This document shows positions 19,594 through 32,000 of a DNA stretch of 32,000 bases, one piece after another. Location: contig CAZONA010000005.1 in the NCBI GenBank assembly GCA_964581025.1, forward strand, positions 19,228 to 51,227, read 5' to 3'. The stretch's first letter is position 1, and each line of letters starts with the position of its first letter. The notes beneath the pieces are model-generated. The model did no database searches and was not told the DNA's origin. It saw nothing but the letters and a program-made list of their open reading frames with translations. Both the position numbers and the translations under genes were made by a program. The stretch comes from an uncultured Lachnospiraceae bacterium. GTDB taxonomy: Bacteria > Bacillota > Clostridia > Oscillospirales > CAG-272.

Positions 19594-21507
19594 TCATATT
19601 TGCTTCATTATTCTCGCCGTATGCGGATGGGCGACGAGGTCGTTTTCATACGTTTCGTAGGTGAGCATATCTATCCACCTTCCGTCTATCCTCGTGCGGT
19701 AATCCTCATCTCCGCCGTTTGCGATCACGACGACACGGGAGCCGTCCCGATATCTTTCGTAAACGAGGGCACGCTCGTCGTGCTCGAGAACACGGAAATC
19801 TCCTCTGTTGAAGGCGATCTCGAGCTTTCTCAGCTCTCCGAGCCTGCGATAATGCTCAAGCAGGGATTTATCCTCCCTGCCCCACGGGTATGTTTTGCGG
19901 CAGAAGGGATCGTGGTATCCCTCGACTCCCGCCTCGTCCCCGTAAAATACCGAGGGGACGCCGTAGACGGTATACTGTATTATTGCCGCCATTTTCAAGC
20001 GTTCCACGGCACGTGCTCTGTCCTCCCACGACATACGTGCGGTGGCAAGCTGGTCGTTCGACATATCGGGGCGATAATTATCGCCGAGGACGGTGAGTAT
20101 TCTTTCCGTATCGTGAGTGCCGAGAATATTCATAAGCGAATCGCTCACGACTCTCGGGTACGAGGAATATATCTCAACGAGGACGTTATAGAGCATTTCC
20201 GCACTTCCGCAGGTAACGAAGTCGATAATTCCGTTGCGGAGGGGGTAATTCATAACGCTATCGAGCTGTCTGCCGTGGAAATAGTGTCTGCGTTTACCGT
20301 AGGCGCATTTGACTGCGGCGTTTTCCCAAACCTCGCCGATGACGATGCCCTCATTATCGGAGCAGGCGTGTACTCGCTCACGGAGCTTATACAAAAATTC
20401 GTCGGAAAGCTCGTCTGCGACGTCAAGCCGCCAGCCGCCGATGCCCATTTTCGTATATTTTTCGATAACTCCGCCCTCGCCGAGAAAAAATTCCTTACAG
20501 GACTCCTCGCCGAGATCGAGCTTTGGGAGGACGTCGATATTCCACCACGATGCGTAGGTATTCGGATAACTTCTGAAGGTATACCAGCTACGGTAGGGGG
20601 ACGTGGGATCACGGTATGCTCCTCCCTCTCCGTACTTACCGTACCTATTGAAATAAAGGCTATCGTCGCCGGTATGGTTGAACACGCCGTCAAGTATTAT
20701 GCGTATTCCCTTCTCCCCTGCCTTAGATATCAGCTCACGCAGAGCCTGCTCGCCGCCGAAGCCCTCGTCGACGGTCATATAGTCGCCCGTATCGTATTTA
20801 TGGTTGGAATACGCCTTGAATATCGGACTTAAATATATCACGCCGACGCCGAGGGACTCGAGGTAGTCGAGCTTTTCCGCAACGCCGAAAAGGTCGCCGC
20901 CGAAGAACATATTATTATCGAGTCTATCCCCGGGGTTTCTTGCGTACTGGGGGACGCCGTTATACCAATCGCCGTTATAGACTGCGTCGCTCCTGTGGGG
21001 CAGCTCGTGCTCACCCTTTGCGAAGCGGTCGACGAAGATATGGTACATTATTCCGCCACCGAACCATTCCTTAGCTCCAAAATCGTCCTCATAGACGAGC
21101 AGGGAGAATTTTGAATCGGAATGGTACGAGAGCTCGAAATCGTAGTTATTTACGCTACTCGTAAAGAGCGTTCTCGTCCCTCGAAGGAGCAAAAATTCAT
21201 AGAAAAACAGCGCAGGAACCGGACCGCAGAGCTTACGCATATTGAGCTCGACAAAATATTCCTCTCGTCCGACCTCAAGGCTCATCACGGAGAGCGGAAT
21301 ATCCCAATACCCCTCCGTATCTCGATTTATTCTGAGCACGACGCCCTGTACTCCCATTCCCGTAGGCACGCTCACTCTGAAGCGCACGTCGTCGCACACG
21401 GAAAACGCCCCGCAGTGCGAGGCGTTTTTCCATGACGCATCAAGCTTAATTTCTTTTATTATTTCAACGCCGTTCACAGAGGCATTGTCCTTGAGCTGAC
21501 CGTACAT
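19594..21507 (-). CDS. Cytoplasmic GH13 alpha-glucan hydrolase (neopullulanase / cyclomaltodextrinase / alpha-amylase-like)
   Basis: The GH13 conserved regions are present: DGVFNHTG, GWRLDVADEL, GEVWEN and LGTHDTER. An N-terminal beta-domain of about 150 aa precedes them. No signal peptide is apparent. This is the last gene of the glg operon. The Shine-Dalgarno is weak, so the start is less certain. Confidence 0.82.
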   Translation of the reverse strand: MYGQLKDNASVNGVEIIKEIKLDASWKNASHCGAFSVCDDVRFRVSVPTGMGVQGVVLRINRDTEGYWDIPLSVMSLEVGREEYFVELNMRKLCGPVPALFFYEFLLLRGTRTLFTSSVNNYDFELSYHSDSKFSLLVYEDDFGAKEWFGGGIMYHIFVDRFAKGEHELPHRSDAVYNGDWYNGVPQYARNPGDRLDNNMFFGGDLFGVAEKLDYLESLGVGVIYLSPIFKAYSNHKYDTGDYMTVDEGFGGEQALRELISKAGEKGIRIILDGVFNHTGDDSLYFNRYGKYGEGGAYRDPTSPYRSWYTFRSYPNTYASWWNIDVLPKLDLGEESCKEFFLGEGGVIEKYTKMGIGGWRLDVADELSDEFLYKLRERVHACSDNEGIVIGEVWENAAVKCAYGKRRHYFHGRQLDSVMNYPLRNGIIDFVTCGSAEMLYNVLVEIYSSYPRVVSDSLMNILGTHDTERILTVLGDNYRPDMSNDQLATARMSWEDRARAVERLKMAAIIQYTVYGVPSVFYGDEAGVEGYHDPFCRKTYPWGREDKSLLEHYRRLGELRKLEIAFNRGDFRVLEHDERALVYERYRDGSRVVVIANGGDEDYRTRIDGRWIDMLTYETYENDLVAHPHTARIMKQI

Positions 21508-21519
21508 TGGTTAAATAAA

Positions 21520-23946
21520 TTACTCCGTTATCTTTTTGATATTCCAGAACTTGCCCGCATATTCCTCGATGCATCTGTCGGCTGCGAAGTAGCCGGCGGA
21601 GGCGATATTCATAAGGGACATTCTGTTCCATTTTTCCTTATTTGCATAATCTGCGATCATGCGCTCGTGAGTCGTGCGGTAGGATTCGAAGTCCGCAAGG
21701 CACATAAAGGGATCGGCAACGCCCATACCGGTGAGAAGGTATCTCGAGATATGTGCGAAGGACTGTCCGGCAAAGCCTCGGTTGAGGCAATCAATTATCT
21801 TACCGAGTCTGTTATTATTAGCGTAGAACTCGTTGGAATGGTAGCCTCTTGCCCAGATATCCTCGACCTCCTTTGCGGTGAGTCCGAAGATATACATATT
21901 TTCCTTACCTGCGGCGTCGAGCATTTCGATATTTGCGCCGTCAAGCGTACCGATGGTGAGTGCGCCGTTGATCATAAGCTTCATACAGCCCGTGCCGCTC
22001 GCCTCCTTACCTGCAAGTGAGATCTGCTCGCTTATCTCGGCGGAGGGGATGAGGCATTCTGCCATGCTTACGTTATAGTTCTCAAGGAACACCACCTTGA
22101 TCTTATCTCTTACCTGCGGATCCTGCTCGATCTCACGGCTGATGAAGCAGATAAGCTTGATTATCTCCTTAGCCATCTGATATCCCGACGCCGCCTTTGC
22201 TCCGAAGATGAAGGTCTGGGGCTGGACGTCGAGGTTGGGATTTTCCTTTATATCAATATAGAGGTTGATTATATTGAGCGCATTGAGAAGCTGACGCTTA
22301 TACTCGTGAAGTCTCTTGATCTGAACGTCAAAGACGGAATGGGTATCGAGGACTCTGCCGGTCTTTTTATAGATATGCTCGGCGAATTCCTTCTTATTCT
22401 CGTGCTTGATCGCTCTCACTCTCTCGAGAGTTGCGGGATCGTCCGCAAATTTCGCAAATTCTGCGAGCTGCTCGGGGTTATGGCGGTAGCCCGTTCCGAT
22501 CGACTCGTCAAGCAATGCGGCAAGGCGGGGGTTGGAATAGCAGAGCCATCTGCGGTGTGCGATACCGTTCGTAACGTTATCGAATCTATCGGGATACATA
22601 CGGTAGAAGTCCTTGAAGGTGCTCTCCTTAAGTATCTCCGAGTGGAGCTTCGAGACGCCGTTCGTGGAATGCGAACCGATGACGGAGAGGTTAGCCATTC
22701 TGACCTGACCGTAGCCGATGATGCTCATATTCGAAATTCTGTCCCAGTTGCCGGGGAAGGTATTCCAGGCCTCCTTACAGAATCTCTCGTTGATCTCCTT
22801 GAGTATCTGATAAATTCTCGGGAGCTTGAGCTTGAAGAGGTCCTCATTCCAAGTTTCAAGTGCTTCGGGAAGGACGGTATGGTTAGTATAGGAAACTATT
22901 CTCTGCACCATATCCCACGCTCTTTCCCAAGAGATATGGTAATCGTCGAGAAGTATTCTCATAAGCTCGGGAATGCAAAGTGCGGGGTGGGTATCGTTGA
23001 TATGGATAGCCACCTTATCGGGCAGATTATCTATCGTGCCGTAGACTGCCATGTGGTCTCGGATGATGCTCTGTATTGATGCGGAAACGAGGAAGTACTG
23101 CTGAGTCAAGCGAAGTATCTTACCCTCGGTATGGTTATCGGAGGGATAGAGCACCTTCGTAAGTATCTCCGCATTCGTGCTCTCCTCAAGAGCTTTCGCA
23201 TACTGTCCCTGCGAGAAAAGTCCCATATTAAAGTTATTGATATCTCTTGCCTTCCAGAGTCTGAGCAGCGATACTGCCTTCGAATCCGCGCCCGAGATCA
23301 TCATATCGTAGGGTACAGCCTCATACTCCTCGCAGCTGTCGTAAATGACCTCCATGTGATCCTCACGCCATTCCTCGCGGACGTGTCCGCCGAGCTTGAC
23401 CTTAAAGATCCTATCGGTTCTGGGTGTGAGCCACACCTCTCCGCCGGGAAGCCATACGTCGGGGAGCTCGATCTGCATACCGTCGACGATCATCTGCTTA
23501 AACAAGCCGTACTCATAGCAAAGCGAAAATCCGGTTGCCGGATAATCAAGCGACGAGAGAGAATCCATAAAGCACGCTGCAAGGCGTCCGAGTCCTCCGT
23601 TACCGAGTCCGGCGTCGGGCTCGCACTCATAAAGCTCCTCAAGATCAAAGCCGAGCCCCTCGAGAGCGCTCTTATAATTTCCTACGAGTCCGAGGTTACA
23701 AAGATTCGTCTTGAGCGATCTTCCGAGCAGAAATTCCATGCACATATAGTACACTCTTTTTCCGCCTGCGGCGTTAACGAGCTTCTTATATTCTCCTCTT
23801 TTTTCGCCGAGAATATCCTTAACGGTCATGGCAGCCGCCTTATACATCTGCTCCCTCGTTGCTTCTGCAGATGTACATCCAAAGTATCTGGCAAGCTTGC
23901 CCTCCAAATTTTCCGTGATTTCGTTCACTGTGGGTTGGTAATTCAT
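21520..23946 (-). CDS. glgP: Glycogen/maltodextrin phosphorylase (GT35)
   Basis: The product is 808 aa. The pyridoxal-phosphate lysine region reads EASGTGCMKLMINGALTIGTLDGANIE. The motifs GNGGLGRLAACF and NDTHPAL are also present. A GGAGGAC RBS lies upstream. Confidence 0.92.
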   Translation of the reverse strand: MNYQPTVNEITENLEGKLARYFGCTSAEATREQMYKAAAMTVKDILGEKRGEYKKLVNAAGGKRVYYMCMEFLLGRSLKTNLCNLGLVGNYKSALEGLGFDLEELYECEPDAGLGNGGLGRLAACFMDSLSSLDYPATGFSLCYEYGLFKQMIVDGMQIELPDVWLPGGEVWLTPRTDRIFKVKLGGHVREEWREDHMEVIYDSCEEYEAVPYDMMISGADSKAVSLLRLWKARDINNFNMGLFSQGQYAKALEESTNAEILTKVLYPSDNHTEGKILRLTQQYFLVSASIQSIIRDHMAVYGTIDNLPDKVAIHINDTHPALCIPELMRILLDDYHISWERAWDMVQRIVSYTNHTVLPEALETWNEDLFKLKLPRIYQILKEINERFCKEAWNTFPGNWDRISNMSIIGYGQVRMANLSVIGSHSTNGVSKLHSEILKESTFKDFYRMYPDRFDNVTNGIAHRRWLCYSNPRLAALLDESIGTGYRHNPEQLAEFAKFADDPATLERVRAIKHENKKEFAEHIYKKTGRVLDTHSVFDVQIKRLHEYKRQLLNALNIINLYIDIKENPNLDVQPQTFIFGAKAASGYQMAKEIIKLICFISREIEQDPQVRDKIKVVFLENYNVSMAECLIPSAEISEQISLAGKEASGTGCMKLMINGALTIGTLDGANIEMLDAAGKENMYIFGLTAKEVEDIWARGYHSNEFYANNNRLGKIIDCLNRGFAGQSFAHISRYLLTGMGVADPFMCLADFESYRTTHERMIADYANKEKWNRMSLMNIASAGYFAADRCIEEYAGKFWNIKKITE

Positions 23947-24001
23947 GTGTCCTCCAAATTAAATAAATAGGTTGCGATGGGTGCTAACTCACACCCGAGC
24001 C

Positions 24002-25435
24002 TTACATTCTTTCGTAAAGCATATAGTACTTTCTTGCGGACGTGCCCCAAGAGAAGTCCGTATCCATTATCTTCTTCACGAAGAGAGGATAAAGCTCATT
24101 ATTATGATAAAGCTCCAGAGCCGCAGAGGTGCGCTCGTAAAGCTCATCCGACGAATAGTTGGCAAAGGTAAAGCCGTTGCCGAGTATAGTTCCGTTAAGA
24201 AGCCAATAGCCCTTAATGGAATCGTAAAGTCCGCCCGTTTCTCTGACGACCGGTATTGCTCCGTATCTCGATGCGATCATCTGCGAGAGTCCGCACGGCT
24301 CGCTCTTCGAGGGCATAAGGAATATATCTGCCGCTGCATAGACGCATTTCGACAGGTCTCTGTCGTACATCATAAGCGCACGCACCTTATCGTTCCTGCA
24401 TCTCTCGAGATCGGTGAAGAAGTTCTCGTACTGAGCCTCTCCCTTTCCGAGCACGACGAGCTGTATATCGTAATTATCCACAAGTCTGTATGCGACGTCT
24501 CGCACGAGGTCAAGTCCCTTATGCGACGCAAGTCTCGAGATTATGGCGACGAGCGGAACGTCCTCACGCACGGGCAGACCGAGGCTCTTTTGGAGCTCCG
24601 TCTTATTGACTCTCTTTTTCTCGATCTCACCCGAGCCGTAATTATTATATATTGCGTAGTCCGTGCGAGGATCGTAGTAATCGTAGTCTATACCGTTGAG
24701 TATTCCCGTGAGCTTATGCGCATTCTTCTGAAGCATCGGCGCAAGCCCGTGGGCGTACTCGTCGGTCTTTATCTCCTCGGCGTATTTCGGGCTGACGGTG
24801 GTTACGACGTTTGCCATCTCGATGGCGCATTTCATAAGGTTGACGCAGCCGTTATAATCGAGGTAGTCCGAATGTCCGAAGCCGAACACGAAGCCGACAA
24901 TATTGCTCGGGAACTGTCCCTGATATTCGATATTATGGATGGTGAACACCGTCTTGATATTCTGGTATTCCCTTCTCCAGCGGAACTCAAAATTGAGATA
25001 AGTGATGGAAAGCGCCGCCTGCCAATCGTGTGCGTGGAGCACGTCCGGATAAAAGCCTATCTCGCCGAGCATCTGCACGCTCGCTTTACAGAAGAAGGCG
25101 TATCTTTCGCCGTCGTCGCCGAAGCCGTACAGATTTCCTCTCTTGAAATACTGCTCGTTATCTATAAAGTAGTAGGTAACTCCGTCCTTCTCGAGGCTGA
25201 GCACTCCGCAATAGAGATTTCTCCACGAGAGCTGGACGTTAAAGCTCTTTTCGAATTTCATTTTCGAACGCCACTCGGGCTTGATAGCGTCGTAGAGTGG
25301 CATAACGACTCTGACGTCGATATCCTCCCCGTATTCACGCTTAAGAGCTGTGGGAAGCGAGCCGAGAACGTCTCCGAGTCCTCCAGTAGCCGCAAACGGC
25401 ATTACCTCGGAGCCTACGAATAATATCTTTCTCAT
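24002..25435 (-). CDS. glgA: Glycogen synthase (ADP-glucose type, GT5)
   Basis: The N-terminus reads MRKILFVGSEVMPFAATGGLGDVLGSLP. The C-terminal region reads PSKSEPCGLSQMIASRYGAIPVVRETGGL. Confidence 0.92.
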   Translation of the reverse strand: MRKILFVGSEVMPFAATGGLGDVLGSLPTALKREYGEDIDVRVVMPLYDAIKPEWRSKMKFEKSFNVQLSWRNLYCGVLSLEKDGVTYYFIDNEQYFKRGNLYGFGDDGERYAFFCKASVQMLGEIGFYPDVLHAHDWQAALSITYLNFEFRWRREYQNIKTVFTIHNIEYQGQFPSNIVGFVFGFGHSDYLDYNGCVNLMKCAIEMANVVTTVSPKYAEEIKTDEYAHGLAPMLQKNAHKLTGILNGIDYDYYDPRTDYAIYNNYGSGEIEKKRVNKTELQKSLGLPVREDVPLVAIISRLASHKGLDLVRDVAYRLVDNYDIQLVVLGKGEAQYENFFTDLERCRNDKVRALMMYDRDLSKCVYAAADIFLMPSKSEPCGLSQMIASRYGAIPVVRETGGLYDSIKGYWLLNGTILGNGFTFANYSSDELYERTSAALELYHNNELYPLFVKKIMDTDFSWGTSARKYYMLYERM

Positions 25436-25481
25436 ATTTTACTCCTTTAACCGCAAATTTCAAAATTTTTCCGATATTCTA

Positions 25482-26618
25482 TCAAACGGTTCTTCCCTTA
25501 TCTATATAGAACGGAAGCGTTTCGTGTCCGGAGAGCATCTTACCGCTCTTGACGGTAACATCCTTATCGGTAACAACACAATTGAGGTAGACGTCGTCGC
25601 CGGTATAGGTATTCTGAAGAAGTATCGAATTCTTGACGACCGTGCCCTTACCGACTCTTACGCCTCTGAAGAGTATCGAATTTTCGACCACTCCTTCGAT
25701 GACGCAGCCGTCGGCGATGATGGAATTGGTAACCTTGGCGTTTTCCGTATATCTCGTGGGAGCGGAATTGCGAACCTTGGTATATATCGGTCTGTTCTTG
25801 ACGTGGAAAACGAGCTTTCTCTTGCTCGTATCGAGCATTTTCATATTGCAGAAGAAATATTTCTGCATTGAATCAATATAATTGAAATATCCGTCGTACT
25901 CGAATGCGAAGAAGCGGTGGGACTCTATATTCGGTCTGATGATATCACGGGTGAAGCTCGTATATCCTCTTGCCTGCGCCTCTCTGACTGCGGAGATGAG
26001 GTAGGAGCGTTTGACGATCATCATATTCGTTCCTATATGAAGCTCTCCCTCCTCAGTATCGTAGGGTGCGTAATCGGTCATTCTGCCGCCATCGGTGCTG
26101 CTTACTATATTGATATACTTATCGAGCGGGAATTTCAGCTCGTGCGTATTTACGAGCTTCGTGATGACGGTGATATCCGCATCGTTCTCGATATGAAAAT
26201 CTATTGCGTCCGAGAAATCTATATTGCAGATCATATTGCAATCGGTGATGACTATATTATCCGCATCGCAGTTGGCAATAAAGTTCTGAACTCCGATAAG
26301 TCCCTCAAGGCGAGTGGAATAAAGTCTGTCGCCGCCGTGCGAGCCGCTCGTGATAAACGGGGGCAGTATTCTGATACCGCCGGAGCGGCGTGCGAGGTCC
26401 CAGTCCTTACCCGTACCGATATGGTCGAGCAGGGACGAATAATTATTATGCGTGATAACTCCGACGTTGGTAATATCGGAATTTACCATATTGGAAAGAG
26501 CAAAGTCTATAAGGCGGTATCTTCCTCCGAAGGGGATGCTCGCAGTCGTGCGAGGCTTGGTGAGCTCGGGGATCGATCCGTCGTGTACGTTTGAAAAGAT
26601 AAGTCCTGCAGCCTTCAT
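25482..26618 (-). CDS. glgD: Glucose-1-phosphate adenylyltransferase, regulatory GlgD subunit
   Basis: The gene is a paralogue of glgC that lacks the GGxGxRL motif (it reads IPFGGRYRLIDFALSNMVNS). It sits immediately downstream of glgC, as in Firmicutes glg operons. A left-handed beta-helix C-terminus is present. Confidence 0.85.
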   Translation of the reverse strand: MKAAGLIFSNVHDGSIPELTKPRTTASIPFGGRYRLIDFALSNMVNSDITNVGVITHNNYSSLLDHIGTGKDWDLARRSGGIRILPPFITSGSHGGDRLYSTRLEGLIGVQNFIANCDADNIVITDCNMICNIDFSDAIDFHIENDADITVITKLVNTHELKFPLDKYINIVSSTDGGRMTDYAPYDTEEGELHIGTNMMIVKRSYLISAVREAQARGYTSFTRDIIRPNIESHRFFAFEYDGYFNYIDSMQKYFFCNMKMLDTSKRKLVFHVKNRPIYTKVRNSAPTRYTENAKVTNSIIADGCVIEGVVENSILFRGVRVGKGTVVKNSILLQNTYTGDDVYLNCVVTDKDVTVKSGKMLSGHETLPFYIDKGRTV

Positions 26619-26627
26619 ATCATCACC

Positions 26628-27809
26628 TCATTCAGAATATATCATTTGGTTATCGGGAACGTCCTCGCCGTCCGCAACCTTAACGCCTGCACCGATGACG
26701 GTAATGCCCTCGGCACATTCCTTAGGTCTGCCGACCTTGGCGGACGCACCGACGCTGACGTCCGAGTCGAGTATCGAATATTCGACCGTTGCGCCCTCGC
26801 CGACGCTTACGTGGTGCATGAGCACGGAATCCTTCACGACTGCGCCCTTGCCGACGCTTACGCCGTAGCCGAGCACGGAATTTATGACCGTTCCGTATAT
26901 CTCACAGCCCTCGGTGATGGACGAATTTTCGATCACCGCACCCTCGCCGACGTACTGGGGAGCTTCGTTCTCGTGGCGTGAGAACACTCTCTTGCCCTCC
27001 CCGAGATCGAGCACGGGCTTGTCTCCGAGAAGATCCATATTAGCCTCCCAAAGAGATGCGATCGTTCCGACGTCCTTCCAATAGCCCTCAAAGGCGTAGG
27101 CGAACATTCTCTCGCCGTTTGCGAGCATCTTGGGGATTATATTCTTGCCGAAATCGTTGCTCGACGTGGGATCTGCTTCGTCCTCCTCGAGATATTTGTA
27201 AAGCTTTTCAGCCGAGAAAATGTATATTCCCATCGACGCAAGGTCGCTGTCCGGCTGCTTCGGCTTTTCGGTGAATTTATATATCGAATCGTCGGGATTA
27301 ACGCTCATGATTCCGAAGCGGCTCGCTTCCTCCATCGGTACCTTGAGCACGGCGATGGTGCAATCCGCACCCCGCTTCTTGTGGTACTCGAGCATTTTTG
27401 CGTAGTCCATAGTGTAAATGTGGTCGCCCGAGAGGATGAGGACGTACTCCGCCTGATACCTCTTGATAAATTCGATATTCTGATATATCGCATTGGCAGT
27501 TCCCTTGTACCAGTCCGCACCGTCGTGCCCCTGATACGGGGGAAGGATCGAAACGCCGCCGTAGGTTCTGTCAAGATCCCACGGAAGTCCGTTTCCTATG
27601 TATTCATTGAGAACGAGGGGTTGGTATTGCGTAAGGACACCCACGGTGTCGACGCCCGAGTTTATGCAGTTGGAAAGCGGAAAGTCTATTATTCTGAACT
27701 TTCCACCGAATGAAACTGCGGGCTTGGCGGTCTTTTTGGTAAGTGCGTAAAGTCGTGAGCCCTGTCCGCCCGCAAGCAGCATGGCTACACACTCTTTTTT
27801 CTTAAACAT
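26628..27809 (-). CDS. glgC: Glucose-1-phosphate adenylyltransferase
   Basis: The motifs [48 protein letters not shown] and a hexapeptide-repeat C-terminus are present. The start was set at ATG 27809 (MFKKKE...), which has AAGGGAGA upstream, rather than at 27827, which has no RBS. Confidence 0.9.
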
Positions 27810-27875
27810 ATCAAAGTCTCCCTTCATAAACGTTATGGACTGCCCCGATAATAACAGGCATACTCATACATTGTT

Positions 27876-28010: not shown

Positions 28011-28042
28011 AAAACAGATACGCCTCGGGTTACCCCGAGGCG
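28011..28042 (-). terminator. Terminator after the T4CP-like ATPase gene
   Basis: The minus strand reads CGCCTCGGG, gtaa, CCCGAGGCG, a 9-bp stem. It is followed by TATCTGTTTT and lies 22 nt downstream of the stop codon. Confidence 0.6.
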
Positions 28043-28063
28043 CACTGATCTTACTTTATTCAA

Positions 28064-29758
28064 TTAAAACCAATCGAAGTCCGTCTTTGTCGATTTGGAC
28101 AGTGCTCTTGCCTCATCCAAGCTCTTCTCTATGTCGTAGACATACATACTCGAGATATAATCTCTGAACGGAACGCTTTCAAGCGGAATAGCCGGCGGAA
28201 CGTCGGTGCGCTTGAAATACGGGAGCATATACGTTTTGAGCCTTTGCGGATTACGCTTGACGTAAAATTCGCCGAGCTGCAACGCCGCAAGGTCGCTCAT
28301 TCTGATAAGGGATACGTCAACGGACGACTGATGCACGGAGAGCTCTCCTCTATTATCCGTATTTGCCGTTGTTTCCGTGCCGATGGTAGAGCCCATGTTC
28401 TTAACGAACGCCTCGTTCGTCTCATAGTTATTTGAGCCGAGAAAGGGCTGTGTATCGCAGTTTATCTCTATCGTCTTTCTCACGTCCTCGCCGTAGACCA
28501 TATCAAGCTGATGCATTGACTGAAGGGCAAGCATCATATAAATTCTCCTCGAGCGAAGAGTGGTTATCTGATTTACGAAGTTCGGCATTTTGGGCATATT
28601 ACAAAACTCATCCGCAAGGATCAAGACGTCGCGGTCAAGTGCATTTTCGTTCCTCTTCTTGCATATATCCGTAAGCTCGCCAAGCAGCTGATCTATGAGC
28701 ATCGAACAAATACTATTGGTACAGTTGCAGCTTTCGTCCGTTACGATGAATATCGCATAGGGCTCGTCGCTGTGAACGGTGGATATGATATCCGACTCAC
28801 GGTCGCTTGCGGTCATTGCGAGAATATTCTCGGTCAGGTACTCCCCGAGCTTTGACGTCATGCTCGCAGTATATCCGTCGCGAGTAACCTTGGCGTTCAT
28901 TCCGACGATATTGATCGCCTGCTGGACGGAAAGATCACTCTTATAACGCTCGAGAAGAGTCAAGAGATCTCTGTAATCGTTGTCGTTATGGAACACCAGC
29001 CTTGCGAGGTTGCTTATCGTAAAGTTATCCACGGTCATTCTCGTATTAGGCTCCGCAGACTCGAGGAGCATCATCCAGATCACGCCCGTGCAGAAGTTTC
29101 TCGCTCCCGATACCCAGCTTGCATCCTTGGGATCGGTAGAAGGAATCAAAACGGTGGCAAAATCCTGCACAAGCTTCGATACCTTGGATATAAGGCGATT
29201 TCTCTCCTCCCTTGCCGCCTCCGCAGCCTCTCGCAAGGTACTGTATTTTCTTCCGTCAAAGGTCCTTCCCACCTTATTCTTCGATATGAGATAGGATATA
29301 TTGAGATACCTATGATAATTCTCGTAGATGGTCTGAAGAGGATTGAAGGGGTTTGACCTATAAGGTCTTGAAAAGTCAAATATCTTGATCTTATAATTTC
29401 TCGCCTCGAGAACTCCGCAAAGATTTCTGTATATCATACCCTTGCTCGTGTCGGTAACGATGAAGCTCGGCTTTTTGTCATCGGGCAGACGGGAAAGCAG
29501 CTCAAGCTGGTTCATAATGTAAACGTAGCTCTTGCCCTTACCGGTCGCACCGACGAGAAGGTTATGAGAATACTTGGTCATCAAAATATTTTCGCCGTCG
29601 AAATATTCGACGAATCCGATATTGTCGGAATCAAGCGTTCTTATGCCCTGAATATCAGTCCAAACTCCGCCCTTTATGTCCTTTCCGGGCTCACATTTCA
29701 CGAGCTCCAACGCTTCGTGGTTTGCAACGTTAAAATTAGTTAAAAAGCTTTTTTTCAT
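28064..29758 (-). CDS. VirD4/TraG-type (type IV coupling protein-like) P-loop ATPase lacking an N-terminal membrane anchor
   Basis: The product is 564 aa. Walker A is HNLLVGATGKGKS (aa 65-77, nt 29528-29551 for the core). Walker B is DVLILADEF (aa 377-385). The C-terminal block LRSRRIYMMLALQSMHQLDMVYGEDVRKTIEINCDTQPFLG is typical of TraG/TraD coupling proteins. Only about 69 hydrophilic residues precede the P-loop. An AGGAGGG RBS lies 8 nt upstream. Confidence 0.8.
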   Translation of the reverse strand: MKKSFLTNFNVANHEALELVKCEPGKDIKGGVWTDIQGIRTLDSDNIGFVEYFDGENILMTKYSHNLLVGATGKGKSYVYIMNQLELLSRLPDDKKPSFIVTDTSKGMIYRNLCGVLEARNYKIKIFDFSRPYRSNPFNPLQTIYENYHRYLNISYLISKNKVGRTFDGRKYSTLREAAEAAREERNRLISKVSKLVQDFATVLIPSTDPKDASWVSGARNFCTGVIWMMLLESAEPNTRMTVDNFTISNLARLVFHNDNDYRDLLTLLERYKSDLSVQQAINIVGMNAKVTRDGYTASMTSKLGEYLTENILAMTASDRESDIISTVHSDEPYAIFIVTDESCNCTNSICSMLIDQLLGELTDICKKRNENALDRDVLILADEFCNMPKMPNFVNQITTLRSRRIYMMLALQSMHQLDMVYGEDVRKTIEINCDTQPFLGSNNYETNEAFVKNMGSTIGTETTANTDNRGELSVHQSSVDVSLIRMSDLAALQLGEFYVKRNPQRLKTYMLPYFKRTDVPPAIPLESVPFRDYISSMYVYDIEKSLDEARALSKSTKTDFDWF

Positions 29759-29782
29759 GAATAATTCCCTCCTGTTAAATCA

Positions 29783-30496
29783 TCAAACGAAGCCTATCTG
29801 GCGTTCGTGCTTCATAATAAATCGAATCGCATTTTCGACCTGCATATCAAGCTCATCAAGTCTTTCTCCGAAAACGGACGGACGCAGACCGTTCAGAGTG
29901 CTTGAAACGTAGGTCGGTACGCTCCACCCGAGGCAGCTGCGATAGATGCTTTCCGCAAGGGAAAAGCTGTAATACGCTCTCTCCTTGTTCCCTATCTCAA
30001 GACAGATCGCACCGAGCAGCTTAACGGCACGTATGGATCCTATACGTGCGAGAAGCTCGAGGTCCTCGAGTGCTCCCTCTACATTTCCGAGCGAATACTG
30101 CTTAAATGCTCTGCTCAAGCGTTCCGAATCGTTCTTAGGGGGTTTGTTGATAACAGCAGAGATGTTTTCAAGCTCGAGATTGCGGATACCGTTCTCGGAA
30201 AGCACCTTCTCAAGCTCCTCAGCCGCACACTTAAGGATGATATTATCGTCCTCCGTGTTGTCAAGGCTGCAGATGAGCAAGAAGTTGCGAGCCGAGCTAA
30301 GGCTGCGGTCTATTCCCTCCGACTCGATGACGTCAAATGCGGCGCAGAACGCCGACCTGTATTCATCGCTCTCGGGGAATATTCCCTCCGATCTCAAAAT
30401 AAGTCCGAGCAGGCTTTTGCGCTGCTCCAAATCATACAAGCCGTCAAATACAGCACGGTAATACGACTTGAATGATTCCGAAAAAATTTTTTTCAT
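29783..30496 (-). CDS. Hypothetical 237-aa helical protein with a TPR/Sel1-like C-terminal segment
   Basis: The ORF has an AAGGAGAG RBS 7 nt upstream. Its stop lies 24 nt before the ATPase start, which suggests coupled expression. I recognise no catalytic motif. The composition looks helical and no signal peptide or TM segment is visible. The segment AFKQYSLGNVEGALEDLELLARIGSIRAVKLLGAICLEIGNKERAYYSFSLAESIY resembles TPR/Sel1 repeats. Confidence 0.6.
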   Translation of the reverse strand: MKKIFSESFKSYYRAVFDGLYDLEQRKSLLGLILRSEGIFPESDEYRSAFCAAFDVIESEGIDRSLSSARNFLLICSLDNTEDDNIILKCAAEELEKVLSENGIRNLELENISAVINKPPKNDSERLSRAFKQYSLGNVEGALEDLELLARIGSIRAVKLLGAICLEIGNKERAYYSFSLAESIYRSCLGWSVPTYVSSTLNGLRPSVFGERLDELDMQVENAIRFIMKHERQIGFV

Positions 30497-30624
30497 GTTT
30501 CTACTCTCCTTTCATTTTTGAGTGGGCAGTCTTATACACCTCCTTTATAGTTTTGGGGAATAATTGCCCCTCGGTCGAGGCATCACGAACACGAGTCGGG
30601 CGATATTTTTCCCCTTCCAATACC

Positions 30625-30652
30625 ATTGTAACACGAAAAATGAAAAAGTCAA
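30625..30652 (-). promoter_or_regulatory. Sigma-A promoter for the 237-aa / ATPase operon
   Basis: The minus strand reads TTGACT (30652-30647), a 16-nt spacer ending in TGt, then TACAAT (30630-30625). The predicted leader is about 120 nt. Confidence 0.55.
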
Positions 30653-30682: not shown

Positions 30683-30722
30683 AAAATCACCCCCGAAAGC
30701 GAGCTTTCGGGGGTGATTTTTG
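30683..30722. terminator. Strong hairpin terminator between the LRR gene and the downstream operon
   Basis: ATCACCCCCGAAAGC, ga, GCTTTCGGGGGTGAT have perfectly complementary 15-nt arms. TTTTT follows on the plus strand and TTTGT on the minus strand. The hairpin lies 17 nt downstream of the LRR gene stop. Confidence 0.65.
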
Positions 30723-30734
30723 ATATTTGACAGT

Positions 30735-31949
30735 TTATTTACCATCTCTTTTAAGTAGTCGAAAAGGATTTCTCGGCGAGATTTTCGCTTTCTTGTTTGG
30801 ATTGAAAATAAGCTTCGTGCCCGAATCAAAGGCGTTTCCCTCTATGCGCTTAACGTTTTTGGGGATGGTTACGGATTTTAGAGATGGACAGTTTTCGAAT
30901 GCGCCGTCGCCTATTTCTATTACCCCGTTTCCGATGGTTACCCTCCTTAGCGAAGTGCAGCCCCAAAACGCACACTCGCCTATGCTTGTTACGCTATTTG
31001 GTATTTTTATATTAATCAAGGAGCTGCAACACCAGAACGCCAGATTTCCTATATTCATTACGTTCTCCCCGATCGTTACGTTCTTTAATGCAGAGCAAAA
31101 TCCAAATGCACCGTAAGATATACTTACCACGCTGCTCGGTATTACAACACTTGTCAATTTTTCACAAGCGCAGAATGCACCGGCATCTATTATCTTGGTA
31201 TTCAAATTAATATTGAAGCTTTCTATTTCCTTATTCTTAACTCTTACCAATGCTAAATAAGGATTAGTACTATTACCAAGGTAATATGCATTGTCGTATT
31301 CATTGTATTTCAATGAAGGGCAGTCGGAAAATGCCCCCTCGGCAATGCTTTCGACAGTATTCGGTATTTCAATTTTTTTCAGATCACCGCAATTGTAAAA
31401 TGCATTGCGTTCTATTGCTTTTACATAAGGCGGAATAACGCTATTTGCCGTACCGCGAAGTAAGGCGTTATCGGACGTTCTTATTATACAACCGTTCTCC
31501 CACTTGATGTGAGTATTATTTTCTATTTTCGCATCAACAAGATTAACAAGATCAGAAACGTTCTCCGCATATTCAGAGTTATCGTAATGAATGTGAAGAA
31601 ACTTTATATACGGGGATCCGGATTTGAAAACCTTCGAATAAGTATCCCCCGACCTTTTGTTCAAGCAAAGATATTCGTCATCGAGACATCCACCGGTAGC
31701 ACCAAGCAAAATATAGAAATGGCTCAATTTATATTCGTGAGATTTCAAAAGCTCACTTCGGATCATTTCAAGCGTTACGTCGCTCTCGCTTTCTCCAACC
31801 ACTACAAAAGCTTCAGCTAAAAGCCTCGCAAACCGCATTTCCTCACGCCGTCTTTCTTTATATATACGCTCTTCCGGATACATATCCTCATCATCGAAGT
31901 ATGAATCTTCATCATATTCTTCATCGAATCGCTCCTCATAATAAGGCAC
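30735..31949 (-). CDS. BspA-type leucine-rich-repeat (LRR_5) protein with an acidic N-terminus; the 5' end may extend beyond the window
   Basis: The C-terminal half carries repeats of about 23 aa: IPNTVESIAEGAFSDCPSLK, IPSSVVSISYGAFGFCSALKNVTI, IPNSVTSIGECAFWGCTSLRRVTI and IPKNVKRIEGNAFD. The N-terminus is D/E/Y-rich. No signal peptide is seen. The track start is GTG 31949, with GGAGGAG 11 nt upstream. The frame has no stop between 31950 and 32000, so the true start could lie off-window. Confidence 0.72.
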   Translation of the reverse strand: MPYYEERFDEEYDEDSYFDDEDMYPEERIYKERRREEMRFARLLAEAFVVVGESESDVTLEMIRSELLKSHEYKLSHFYILLGATGGCLDDEYLCLNKRSGDTYSKVFKSGSPYIKFLHIHYDNSEYAENVSDLVNLVDAKIENNTHIKWENGCIIRTSDNALLRGTANSVIPPYVKAIERNAFYNCGDLKKIEIPNTVESIAEGAFSDCPSLKYNEYDNAYYLGNSTNPYLALVRVKNKEIESFNINLNTKIIDAGAFCACEKLTSVVIPSSVVSISYGAFGFCSALKNVTIGENVMNIGNLAFWCCSSLINIKIPNSVTSIGECAFWGCTSLRRVTIGNGVIEIGDGAFENCPSLKSVTIPKNVKRIEGNAFDSGTKLIFNPNKKAKISPRNPFRLLKRDGK

Positions 31950-32000
31950 TTCGGGCAGCTCTCCTCCAAGCTTGCTTTTTATATACGCTGCGAGGAAAAA

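Follow-up and report, generated by a model that had tools for sequence, protein, structure and literature searches.

Organization of the operon

The window analysed is a 32-kb stretch of a gut Clostridia chromosome, and all coordinates are positions within it. On its reverse strand, a gene for a 237-amino acid (aa) protein, here called the partner, is followed by a gene for a 564-aa ATPase. The features of this two-gene operon and its borders are as follows.

30683..30720, no strand assigned: 17-bp palindromic hairpin, terminating the upstream leucine-rich repeat (LRR) gene and insulating the operon
30625..30652, reverse strand: sigma-A-type promoter, TTGACT, 16 nt and an extended -10 element TG-TACAAT (10 of 12 matches, with the TG)
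30497..30624, reverse strand: 5′ leader of about 120 nt, including the ribosome binding site AAAGGAG
29783..30496, reverse strand: partner gene, 237-aa ORF
29759..29782, reverse strand: 24-nt spacer between the partner and ATPase genes, carrying the ATPase ribosome binding site AGGAGG
28064..29758, reverse strand: ATPase gene, 564-aa ORF
28018..28045, reverse strand: terminator-like hairpin with a 12-bp stem, 8 G-C pairs and a weak T-tract, 19 nt past the ATPase stop codon

The two ORFs are those delineated in a first-pass annotation of this DNA. Sequence inspection places each ribosome binding site 9 nt ahead of its ATG, which bears out the strong sites claimed for both genes. The promoter and leader of about 120 nt attributed to the pair were also found, the promoter reading from 30652 to 30625, as were the terminators said to bracket it (the 17-bp hairpin at 30683-30720 and the 12-bp hairpin at 28045-28018). 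The hairpin at 30683..30720 is a boundary mark that lies outside the two-gene module.

Motif scans of the window yielded 13 promoter-like sites (6.6 ± 2.7 in shuffled controls) and 5 terminator-like sites (3.6 ± 1.8). Because shuffled controls also yield many sites, such scans alone are weak evidence. The predicted promoter is instead supported by conservation, both of its hexamers being kept in the orthologous region of the closest relative (locus L001). The leader matches no Rfam family at gathering score and its fold is ordinary (z-score -1.18); a riboswitch or other structured leader was rejected on these two results.

The LRR gene upstream was considered as a possible third component. It is separated from the pair by a terminator, its GC3 is 0.40 versus 0.59 for the operon, and it is absent from most homologous loci. 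On these observations it was rejected in that role, and the gene is probably unrelated.

The ATPase and its helical partner

On profile and model evidence, the 564-aa protein is a VirD4/TrwB-fold ATPase of the VirD4/TraG/TrwB coupling-protein (T4CP) family. Pfam models for T4SS-DNA_transf (PF02534, E 1.6e-25), TraG-D_C (PF12696, aa 378-493, E 2.2e-23) and TrwB_AAD_bind (PF10412, E 4.3e-13) all match, and an AF2 model (pLDDT 87.5) gives Cagβ (E 4e-16) and TrwBΔN70 (TM 0.70-0.74) as best Foldseek matches, with PDB 8dol on top. The chain consists of a short β-rich domain at the N-terminus (aa 1-62), nucleotide-binding and all-alpha domains, and a tail at the C-terminus. Both the insertion of the all-alpha domain in the nucleotide-binding domain and the TrwB-like overall fold are present (PF10412, AF2/Foldseek). 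Specific protein features map to the window as listed here.

29528..29551, reverse strand: ATPase Walker A GATGKGKS, aa 70-77 (G70, G73, G75 and K76 invariant in 30 family members)
28604..28630, reverse strand: ATPase Walker B DVLILADEF, aa 377-385 (D383, E384 and F385 invariant; aligns to the TrwB Walker B)
29789..29797, reverse strand: partner C-terminal tail Ile234-Gly235-Phe236 (IGF), invariant in two family alignments (A2, A3)

Residues K76, D383, E384, R402 and Q413 are invariant in an alignment of 30 family members. The two Walker motifs and the TraG/VirD4-type C-terminal block reported previously are all present, and the T4CP fold recognized at that stage is one on which Pfam and AF2/Foldseek agree.

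The ATPase lacks a membrane anchor. Transmembrane (TM) calls here rest on a Kyte-Doolittle 19-residue (KD19) hydropathy scan, in which the ATPase reaches a maximum of 0.97 and has no TM segment, as had been surmised from its hydrophilic N-terminus. None of the 23 family ATPases has a TM-like segment in the same scan, whereas TM helices occur in 141 of 144 scoreable other T4CP relatives. The full T4CP nucleotide-binding and all-alpha domains are retained in the ATPase, and the two TM helices at the N-terminus have been lost.

The best family-level match is NCBIfam NF045973, the CD1115 family (199 bits, E 1e-58, in two stretches), a score that misses the equivalog cut-off of 250 bits. By tblastn, VirD4 proteins of the pLS20/CD1115 type are about 25% identical over 78-89% of the ATPase; they share its nucleotide-binding, all-alpha and TraG-D_C organization, and the stretch just before Walker A aligns. 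However, CD1115-family VirD4 proteins measure 729-738 aa, carry two TM helices at the N-terminus and a long tail at the C-terminus, reside in pLS20-type conjugation operons together with pLS20_p028-family membrane proteins and relaxases, and are not accompanied by any homologue of the 237-aa partner. The 442-position length of the CD1115 model had suggested that this family itself is TM-less, a notion dismissed by the annotated plasmid genes (729-738 aa, two TM helices). A Bacilli clade of T4CP relatives adjoins TrbL-like and VirB4-like genes. TrwBΔN70 from R388 superposes on the predicted fold of the ATPase (TM 0.70-0.74), and sequence alignment pairs the Walker B and Q-loop segments of the two, but sequence identity to TrwB and to Helicobacter pylori Cagβ is only 16-17%. 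Furthermore, these two proteins are membrane-anchored T4SS subunits, whereas in the ATPase a family-specific β-rich N-terminal domain (about 60 aa) occupies the position of the TM domain.

The partner is modelled as a 12-helix protein (AF2, pLDDT 80.5) and has no catalytic motif. A search of 1.84 billion representatives returned 85 matches at E<1e-3, and the partner is the founding member of a small, previously undescribed family of about 75 clusters that has so far gone without annotation. Its C-terminal half is weakly TPR/Sel1-like: Pfam TPR_9 scores 15.7 bits (cut-off 35), the family profile matches SRP72 TPR at E 0.0026, the partner itself gives a weak LcrH/SycD match at E 0.05, and the best Foldseek matches (E 0.1 in PDB, 0.06 in a viral library) are all to TPR/Sel1 proteins below significance, PcrH and other peptide-binding TPR domains being among the sub-significant fold matches. 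TPR_9 and the LcrH/SycD chaperone, both sub-threshold, were dropped as identities for the partner. Of the initial description of a small helical, TPR-like protein, the helical part stands, and the TPR label is only weakly backed (TPR_9 at 15.7 versus 35 bits, Foldseek E 0.1).

The IGF tail falls below pLDDT 50 in the model, which indicates that it is flexible, and it may serve as a docking motif. The partner in the window has no TM segment (maximum KD19 1.58), and partners are soluble at 22 of 23 loci by hydropathy scan; the single exception (L002) has an N-terminal TM anchor, which is consistent with a tethering or adaptor subunit. Overall, the partner is probably a binding or regulatory subunit of the ATPase.

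Linkage, distribution and neighbourhoods

To define linkage, 171 fetched loci holding a T4CP relative were divided into 23 family-level loci and 148 others. A partner HMM detects the partner at 23/23 family loci, where it is always directly upstream on the same strand, and at 0/148 other T4CP loci. The two genes are spaced by 3-24 nt or overlap slightly at 21 of the 23 loci, and the ORFs are intact at all 23. Anchor loss and partner gain are strictly coupled across these relatives. The first-pass annotation had described the small protein as dedicated to the ATPase, and this strict co-conservation confirms that the two genes are kept together.

The family is very rare: a survey of 185,579 species representatives gave 8 close loci, and the family was found neither in the JGI metagenome collection nor in the phage and plasmid collections searched. 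Specifically, the partner is missing from 72,556 plasmids, and the plasmid collection holds no ATPase homologue above 26% identity. A partner-profile scan of viral contigs gave no match, and in JGI metagenomes and IMG/VR the ATPase profile retrieved nothing but canonical T4CPs with TM segments, at ≤28% identity.

Sequence evolution at the locus is ordinary. The dN/dS values of the pair (0.07-0.24) are close to those of neighbouring genes and indicate purifying selection, operon GC3 (0.59) compares with 0.59-0.70 in host genes, and the locus is syntenic across four congeneric species with identities like those of flanking core genes. The genomic position of the pair differs between lineages. 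Because of the synteny, the ordinary evolution rates and the retention in four related species, the pair looks more like a lineage-specific core function than like an immune gene with fast turnover. These properties, together with mixed neighbourhoods, do not bear out the role in defence or DNA surveillance that had been suggested from the window.

There is no T4SS, relaxase or integrase gene in the 32-kb window. None of the annotated family loci has a T4SS gene (VirB4, VirB6), a relaxase gene or an oriT-processing gene within ±10 kb. The pair had been placed outside conjugative elements, and this holds for every annotated homologous locus. The concern that T4SS genes might adjoin the pair is met by their absence from the window and the homologous loci, the latter serving as a proxy for sequence beyond position 32,000.

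A third gene that often accompanies the pair encodes an XRE-family HTH regulator. At L009/L178, cas9-cas1-cas2-csn2 lie directly downstream; a PDC-S37-like helicase (1e-80), a kinase, a PP2C and a transglutaminase-like protein are encoded near the pair at L175, kinase-VWA-PP2C genes at L085, and Macro, ARH, serine recombinase and phage BppU_N genes at L089, the only locus with an integrase or recombinase nearby. These conflict-type neighbours are per-locus observations. Also, one family ATPase carries a C-terminal Imm53 domain. About half of the annotated loci have purely housekeeping flanks, including the window, L082 (parA/parB nearby), L087 and L088. The host genomes of homologous loci encode SpoIIE, and the hosts can on this basis be considered spore formers. 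In the window and at L001, L006, L085 and L088, LRR_5 genes lie close to the pair. Divergent upstream genes (355-393 aa) were considered as one conserved family, but only those of L006 and L008 are homologous and the rest share a weak HTH/Zn-ribbon likeness.

Possible functions of the pair

The architecture of the operon and its independence from a T4SS can be stated with high confidence. What the pair does is far less certain. Our leading reading, offered tentatively, is a T4SS-independent operon that encodes a soluble hexameric motor derived from a coupling protein together with its dedicated partner, most likely for conflict with mobile elements. The ATPase may derive from a conjugative VirD4 of Firmicutes (pLS20/CD1115 lineage), and the partner would have arisen with it. 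Ancestral T4CP specificity is for relaxosome-type substrates. Because this ancestry favours such substrates and many loci lie beside defence-type genes, mobile-element conflict is the likeliest role, although we hold the anti-mobile-element function itself with slightly greater reserve than the overall reading.

In this proposal, the partner would bind the ATPase 1:1, with the flexible, invariant IGF tail and the TPR-like groove as likely contacts, and could be a receptor for substrates or a gatekeeper. Once released, or once a substrate is bound, the ATPase would assemble into a ring and spend ATP on engaging cytoplasmic DNA or protein-DNA complexes; the likeliest targets would be DNA-relaxase complexes arriving by conjugation, or phage DNA. 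A mechanistic precedent is provided by CagZ, likewise a small, all-helical protein encoded beside a T4CP, which binds the all-alpha domain of Cagβ, blocks hexamerization and ATPase activity, and keeps an inactive monomer (PMC9886983). However, CagZ acts inside the complete Cag T4SS, and the partner shows no likeness to it either among the top 50 PDB fold matches listed or among sequence and profile matches.

Among known defence systems, Sir2-HerA and DUF4297-HerA follow the same two-gene logic of ATPase plus partner, their ATPases are ring translocases of the same ASCE P-loop superfamily, and they appear as lower-ranked structural matches (E ~1e-5). They differ in that their motors are of the HerA family rather than VirD4 and in that the motor is paired with an enzymatic effector (Sir2, nuclease). 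Neither protein of the present pair is matched by a HerA model of PADLOC. More broadly, the locus matches no defence system in PADLOC-DB v2.0.0, so it does not duplicate a named system there, and the partner is without any match. A mad8 match of the ATPase (E 4e-5) was discarded as generic P-loop likeness, since an unrelated AAA+/FtsH-like protein matches the same model. The literature searched, which is incomplete, contains no account of this module, whether as an orphan or soluble T4CP or as a T4CP in defence.

A defence role is plausible. In its most specific form, which we consider possible but doubtful, a domesticated coupling protein, often accompanied by an XRE regulator, would constitute an immune module. 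In the cytoplasm of the recipient, a soluble VirD4-like ring would detect incoming ssDNA with relaxase bound, or complexes of phage DNA and protein; the helical partner, via its IGF tail, would serve as the sensor or latch; and ATP-driven translocation would strip or sequester the invader or abort its establishment. If the pair had such an anti-plasmid or anti-phage role, it would represent a new mechanistic class of bacterial immunity and the first T4SS component exapted for defence against its source elements.

Coupling proteins are defined as the membrane-bound gate set between the relaxosome and the channel for type IV secretion. That one clade has shed the anchor, acquired an obligate new partner and departed from conjugative elements indicates that the VirD4-type motor is re-usable for another job, and raises the question of what a VirD4 ring does without a channel. 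Full-length membrane T4CPs are hard to purify, and the pair would offer a naturally soluble T4CP for biochemistry.

Mobile-element conflict has to be weighed against other explanations. An unlikely one, yet the strongest, is a lineage-specific housekeeping motor for endogenous DNA or protein handling in these Clostridia, for example in chromosome or sporulation-associated DNA processing; SftA, a soluble FtsK paralogue of Bacillus subtilis, offers an analogy. Host-like GC3, the dN/dS range, a sigma-A-type promoter, retention in four congeneric species at core-like identities, the housekeeping flanks (window, L082, L087, L088) and spore-forming hosts all fit this explanation. Counting against it are the great rarity of the family (8 close loci, none in JGI metagenomes), a position that changes between lineages, the frequent adjacency of conflict-type genes and dedicated XRE regulators, and the existence of an ATPase fused to Imm53 and of a partner version with a membrane anchor. 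If true, it would add a new lineage-specific DNA/protein motor in abundant uncultured gut and rumen Clostridia.

Slightly less likely is a conjugation component that acts in trans, recruited, perhaps via the partner, to a T4SS elsewhere as an alternative coupling protein or mobilization helper. T4CPs that lack a TM anchor and depend on a partner form a recognized class (Llosa and Alkorta classes, as cited in PMC7431656), and pIP501 TraJ/TraI is such a pair, with a TM-less T4CP and a separately encoded partner. TraI is a membrane protein, the L002 partner variant is membrane-anchored, and the 'TraM recognition' region (TraG-D_C) is still present in the ATPase. However, TraJ/TraI belong to a plasmid tra operon, whereas the present pair is chromosomal with no tra operon or T4SS, core synteny and, except at L089, no integrase or recombinase; its partner is soluble at 22/23 loci, and the plasmid searches and the ±10-kb surveys described above also argue against an in-trans role.

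It is very improbable that the two proteins form a cytoplasmic chaperone-ATPase pair for protein export or handling, in which the partner would resemble a class II type III secretion chaperone and the substrates could be the upstream signal-peptide-less BspA-type LRR protein or polymorphic toxins. The LcrH/SycD match, the PcrH-type TPR domains among fold matches, the LRR_5 genes near five of the pairs and the Imm53 fusion point in this direction, but every chaperone or TPR likeness is sub-significant and the pair has no conserved companion that is a membrane channel component. Set off by a strong terminator, the LRR gene has a foreign GC3 (0.40) and is absent from most loci; LRR genes of the BspA type also seem to be frequent in these genomes, such that proximity may be chance. 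Finally, a decaying, functionless remnant of an integrative conjugative element, to which the detection of ATPase homology only to conjugative coupling proteins might point, is effectively refuted by purifying selection and strict partner co-conservation, and the intact ORFs, invariant catalytic residues, conserved promoter and host-like GC3 also stand against it.

Membrane anchor and partner gene in the ATPase family

By fold and motifs, the 564-aa ATPase is a member of the superfamily of type IV coupling proteins (T4CPs). It matches the Pfam families T4SS-DNA_transf (1.6e-25), TraG-D_C (2.2e-23) and TrwB_AAD_bind (4.3e-13). The Walker A (GATGKGKS, aa 70-77) and Walker B (DVLILADEF, aa 377-385) motifs reported by the first-pass annotation are present, as is its C-terminal block, which falls within TraG-D_C. 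A confident AlphaFold2 model (pLDDT 87.5, pTM 0.85), built from an alignment of 30 family sequences, finds its top PDB matches in the cytosolic portion of Helicobacter pylori Cagβ (E 4e-16) and in TrwBΔN70 (target-normalised TM 0.70-0.74); DotL, HerA and VirB4 rank far below these. The family-wide invariance of K76, D383/E384, R402 and Q413 predicts that the ATPase should be active.

The protein had also been described as anchor-less. Its 19-residue Kyte-Doolittle maximum is 0.97, and no family ATPase reaches 1.6, the threshold for a transmembrane (TM)-like segment. In the model, residues 1 to ~62 form a small β-rich domain. Most family ATPases carry an HE-x3-C-x2-C motif in this domain (family alignment A1, window aa 14-22), a possible metal site; the motif is degenerate in the window ATPase, where Leu takes the place of the first Cys, as it does in the protein of the closest relative, L001. 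In some family ATPases the C-terminus is extended by about 170-260 aa. One of 824 aa, P0029, has a C-terminal Imm53 domain (residues 672-742; 32.5 bits against a Pfam cut-off of 25), a predicted polymorphic-toxin immunity family (PMC3482391).

Profile HMMs of the ATPase and the partner were run on all ORFs from 180 sequences (the window and 179 fetched loci), a T4CP relative being present in 171. The ATPase scores show two modes, with 23 loci at 755-931 bits and the rest at 358 bits or below. Partner matches occur in precisely these 23 loci (about 17 distinct loci once de-duplicated), directly upstream and on the same strand in all, and in 0/148 of the other T4CP loci, which bears out the earlier proposal of a dedicated partner. 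The two genes are 3-24 nt apart or overlap briefly in 21/23 loci. TM-like segments are found in 0/23 family ATPases, whereas 141/144 other T4CP relatives have one before Walker A, and of the three exceptions at least two appear to be ORFs truncated at a contig end. This coupled loss of the TM segment and gain of the partner marks the pair as one unit.

The closest conjugative relatives, the pLS20-type ‘CD1115 family’ VirD4 proteins (about 25% identity), differ in having 729-738 aa and two TM helices, and are encoded in operons alongside relaxases and membrane proteins of conjugation. The window ATPase scores 199 bits on the CD1115 equivalog, under the 250-bit cut-off. A Bacilli clade of about 24% identity adjoins TrbL-like and VirB4-like genes. 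The nearest out-group T4CP, in locus L010 (9722-11710; 31% identity), has two TM helices and is flanked by ComEC and by 2123-aa and 921-aa proteins without a Pfam match, with no recognisable T4SS (type IV secretion system). Two features that define functional coupling proteins, a TM anchor and a T4SS/relaxase context, are missing for the window ATPase.

The 237-aa partner matches no Pfam, NCBIfam, PHROG or PADLOC family and has no sequence relative in the PDB. A word-indexed search of 5.8 billion proteins returned only the partner itself and one homologue of 57% identity. An ORF of 224-258 aa lies directly upstream of every related ATPase, and alignment of these ORFs reveals a real, fast-diverging family (20-38% identity). 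Its profile, searched against 1.84 billion cluster representatives, matched 85 proteins at E<1e-3, of which 63 reach E<1e-10; almost all of them are 215-260 aa long. The partner's AlphaFold2 model has 12 helices (pLDDT 80.5). Fold searches gave generic TPR/Sel1 matches and no significant structural relative (best E values 0.1 for the PDB and 0.06 for a viral library), and the family profile reaches the SRP72 TPR at E 0.0026; we therefore call the partner helical and, in its C-terminal half, weakly TPR/Sel1-like. What stands out most is that the partner's extreme C-terminus carries an invariant Ile-Gly-Phe, on a flexible, low-confidence tail. The partner in L002 (8750-9928; 392 aa) is the sole membrane-anchored variant among those seen, with an N-terminal extension that contains one or two TM helices (KD19 2.60).

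Operon layout and regulators

The ORFs lie exactly where the first-pass annotation placed them, with 24 nt between them and a strong Shine-Dalgarno sequence 9 nt before each ATG, and the promoter and bracketing hairpins it described were found:

30683-30720, 17-bp hairpin
30652..30625 (-), promoter TTGACT, 16 nt, TG-TACAAT (extended -10)
29783-30496 (-), partner, 237 aa
28064-29758 (-), ATPase, 564 aa
28045-28018, 12-bp hairpin

Consensus scans by themselves are weak evidence for a promoter (13 promoter-like sites observed against 6.6 expected). Both hexamers are, however, kept in the orthologous region of L001. The leader of ~120 nt matches no Rfam family at gathering score and has no unusual structure (fold z-score -1.18). 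A stretch just 3′ of the -10 box (30560-30620, -) is partly kept in L001 (about 520-600), unlike the remaining leader, which has diverged; this stretch could be an operator for a regulator.

In many loci an XRE-family HTH gene lies directly upstream of the pair; there is none in the 32-kb window.

XRE-family genes upstream of the pair, by locus
Same strand, 160-190 aa: L002 (7969-8547), L004 (8517-9032), L007/L083, L085, L087 (8521-9009)
Same strand, 107 aa, Cys-rich: L082 (8614-8937), L088 (8767-9090)
Divergent: L006, L008

The proteins compared, those of L002, L004 and L087, are 33-41% identical despite differing surroundings. Conserved motifs are YxYYCSxxC in the longer type and CSGEC-x2-CE in the shorter, and the cysteine-rich nature of both same-strand types hints at metal or redox sensing.

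Genomic setting and distribution

The whole window is of housekeeping character (holB, a PSP1/RicT-like gene, glycoside hydrolases, SmpB and a glycogen operon), and the end of glgC lies 236 nt downstream of the ATPase gene. The glycogen cluster is complete (19594-27827, -; an α-amylase-family enzyme, glgP, glgA, glgD and glgC) and follows the pair on the same strand, beyond the hairpin at 28018-28045 and the intergenic region. Four related species share the gene order SCIFF, radical-SAM maturase, decarboxylase, HTH, partner, ATPase. Among them ATPase identity is 77-83%, within the 54-93% range of flanking genes, and dN/dS is 0.07-0.12 for the ATPase, 0.11-0.24 for the partner and 0.04-0.17 for neighbours, values that are approximate because dS is near saturation. 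The GC3 of the pair (0.59) is in line with that of host genes (0.59-0.70).

Upstream of the operon lies a BspA-type LRR_5 gene (30735-31949, -; 404 aa) with GC and GC3 of 0.40, whereas all other genes checked have GC3 of 0.59-0.70. Its product lacks a signal peptide and is highly acidic at the N-terminus. The gene looks like a recent insertion, which possibly displaced the XRE regulator found ahead of the pair in other genomes.

No VirB4, VirB6, relaxase or pilus genes were found within 10 kb on either side of the annotated family loci, and only one of these, L089, has recombinase and phage genes nearby. Searches of 72,556 plasmids and 50,697 phage records, and of IMG/VR and the JGI metagenome collection, gave no close family relative. 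Among 185,579 species representatives only 8 carry the family, all of them MAGs of gut or rumen Clostridia. The module is rare, confined to uncultured Clostridia, conserved and well defined. The pair sits on the chromosome, is under selection and does not depend on an adjacent T4SS.

Possible roles and conflict-type neighbours

These analyses establish a soluble, VirD4-fold ATPase, predicted to be catalytically intact, whose pairing with a new helical protein is obligatory. No PADLOC v2 model matched the pair; a weak mad8 match of the ATPase was dismissed as generic. Full-text literature searches, within the limits of the library searched, found no account of such a clean, conserved module, whose partner protein is without annotation.

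CagZ offers the best precedent: this small helical protein, whose gene adjoins that of the T4CP Cagβ, grips the all-α domain and traps Cagβ as an inactive monomer (PMC9886983). The pIP501 pair TraJ/TraI shows that TM-less T4CPs can depend on a separate partner (PMC7431656). By analogy, the partner is probably a stoichiometric subunit of the ATPase, and its invariant, flexible Ile-Gly-Phe tail is the obvious candidate docking peptide. The partner would act as a latch or adaptor that holds or targets the ATPase; after a trigger, ATPase rings would assemble and engage DNA or DNA-protein substrates, driven by ATP.

Conflict-type genes are recurrent, non-universal neighbours of the pair. In L009/L178 a full type II-A CRISPR-Cas operon (cas9, cas1, cas2, csn2; L009 12586-17710, L178 13287-19073) lies directly downstream. 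Elsewhere we found a PDC-S37-like helicase of the Upf1 type (1e-80) alongside a kinase, a PP2C and a transglutaminase-like protein (L175); PP2C, transglutaminase-like and AAA+ genes (L003/L005); kinase-VWA-PP2C genes (L085); and MoxR-DUF58-BatA-VWA genes (L083).

Of the possible roles, conflict with mobile elements is tentatively the likeliest. It is suggested by the specificity of ancestral T4CPs for relaxosomes, by the XRE regulators dedicated to the pair, by the fusion to Imm53 and by neighbours of defence type. Host-like composition, synteny and the many housekeeping contexts leave some room for a lineage-specific housekeeping role, which we consider unlikely, and for a role in conjugation exerted in trans, which ranks just after it as improbable. 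A decaying remnant of an integrative conjugative element is effectively excluded.

The CRISPR-Cas operon starts about 380 nt 3′ of a long, 739-aa ATPase variant, an arrangement identical across three contigs. A PP2C_2 phosphatase followed by a ~220-aa transglutaminase-like protein recurs upstream or downstream of the pair (L005 1875-9165, L003 3021-9185, L175 13829-21628, L004 13794-17415). These genes are accompanied either by a 966-aa AAA_2+AAA+M41 ATPase (FtsH-like, apparently TM-less) or by a Ser/Thr kinase and a 1260-aa Upf1-like helicase (PADLOC PDC-S37), and the cluster may be a separate, uncharacterised conflict system.
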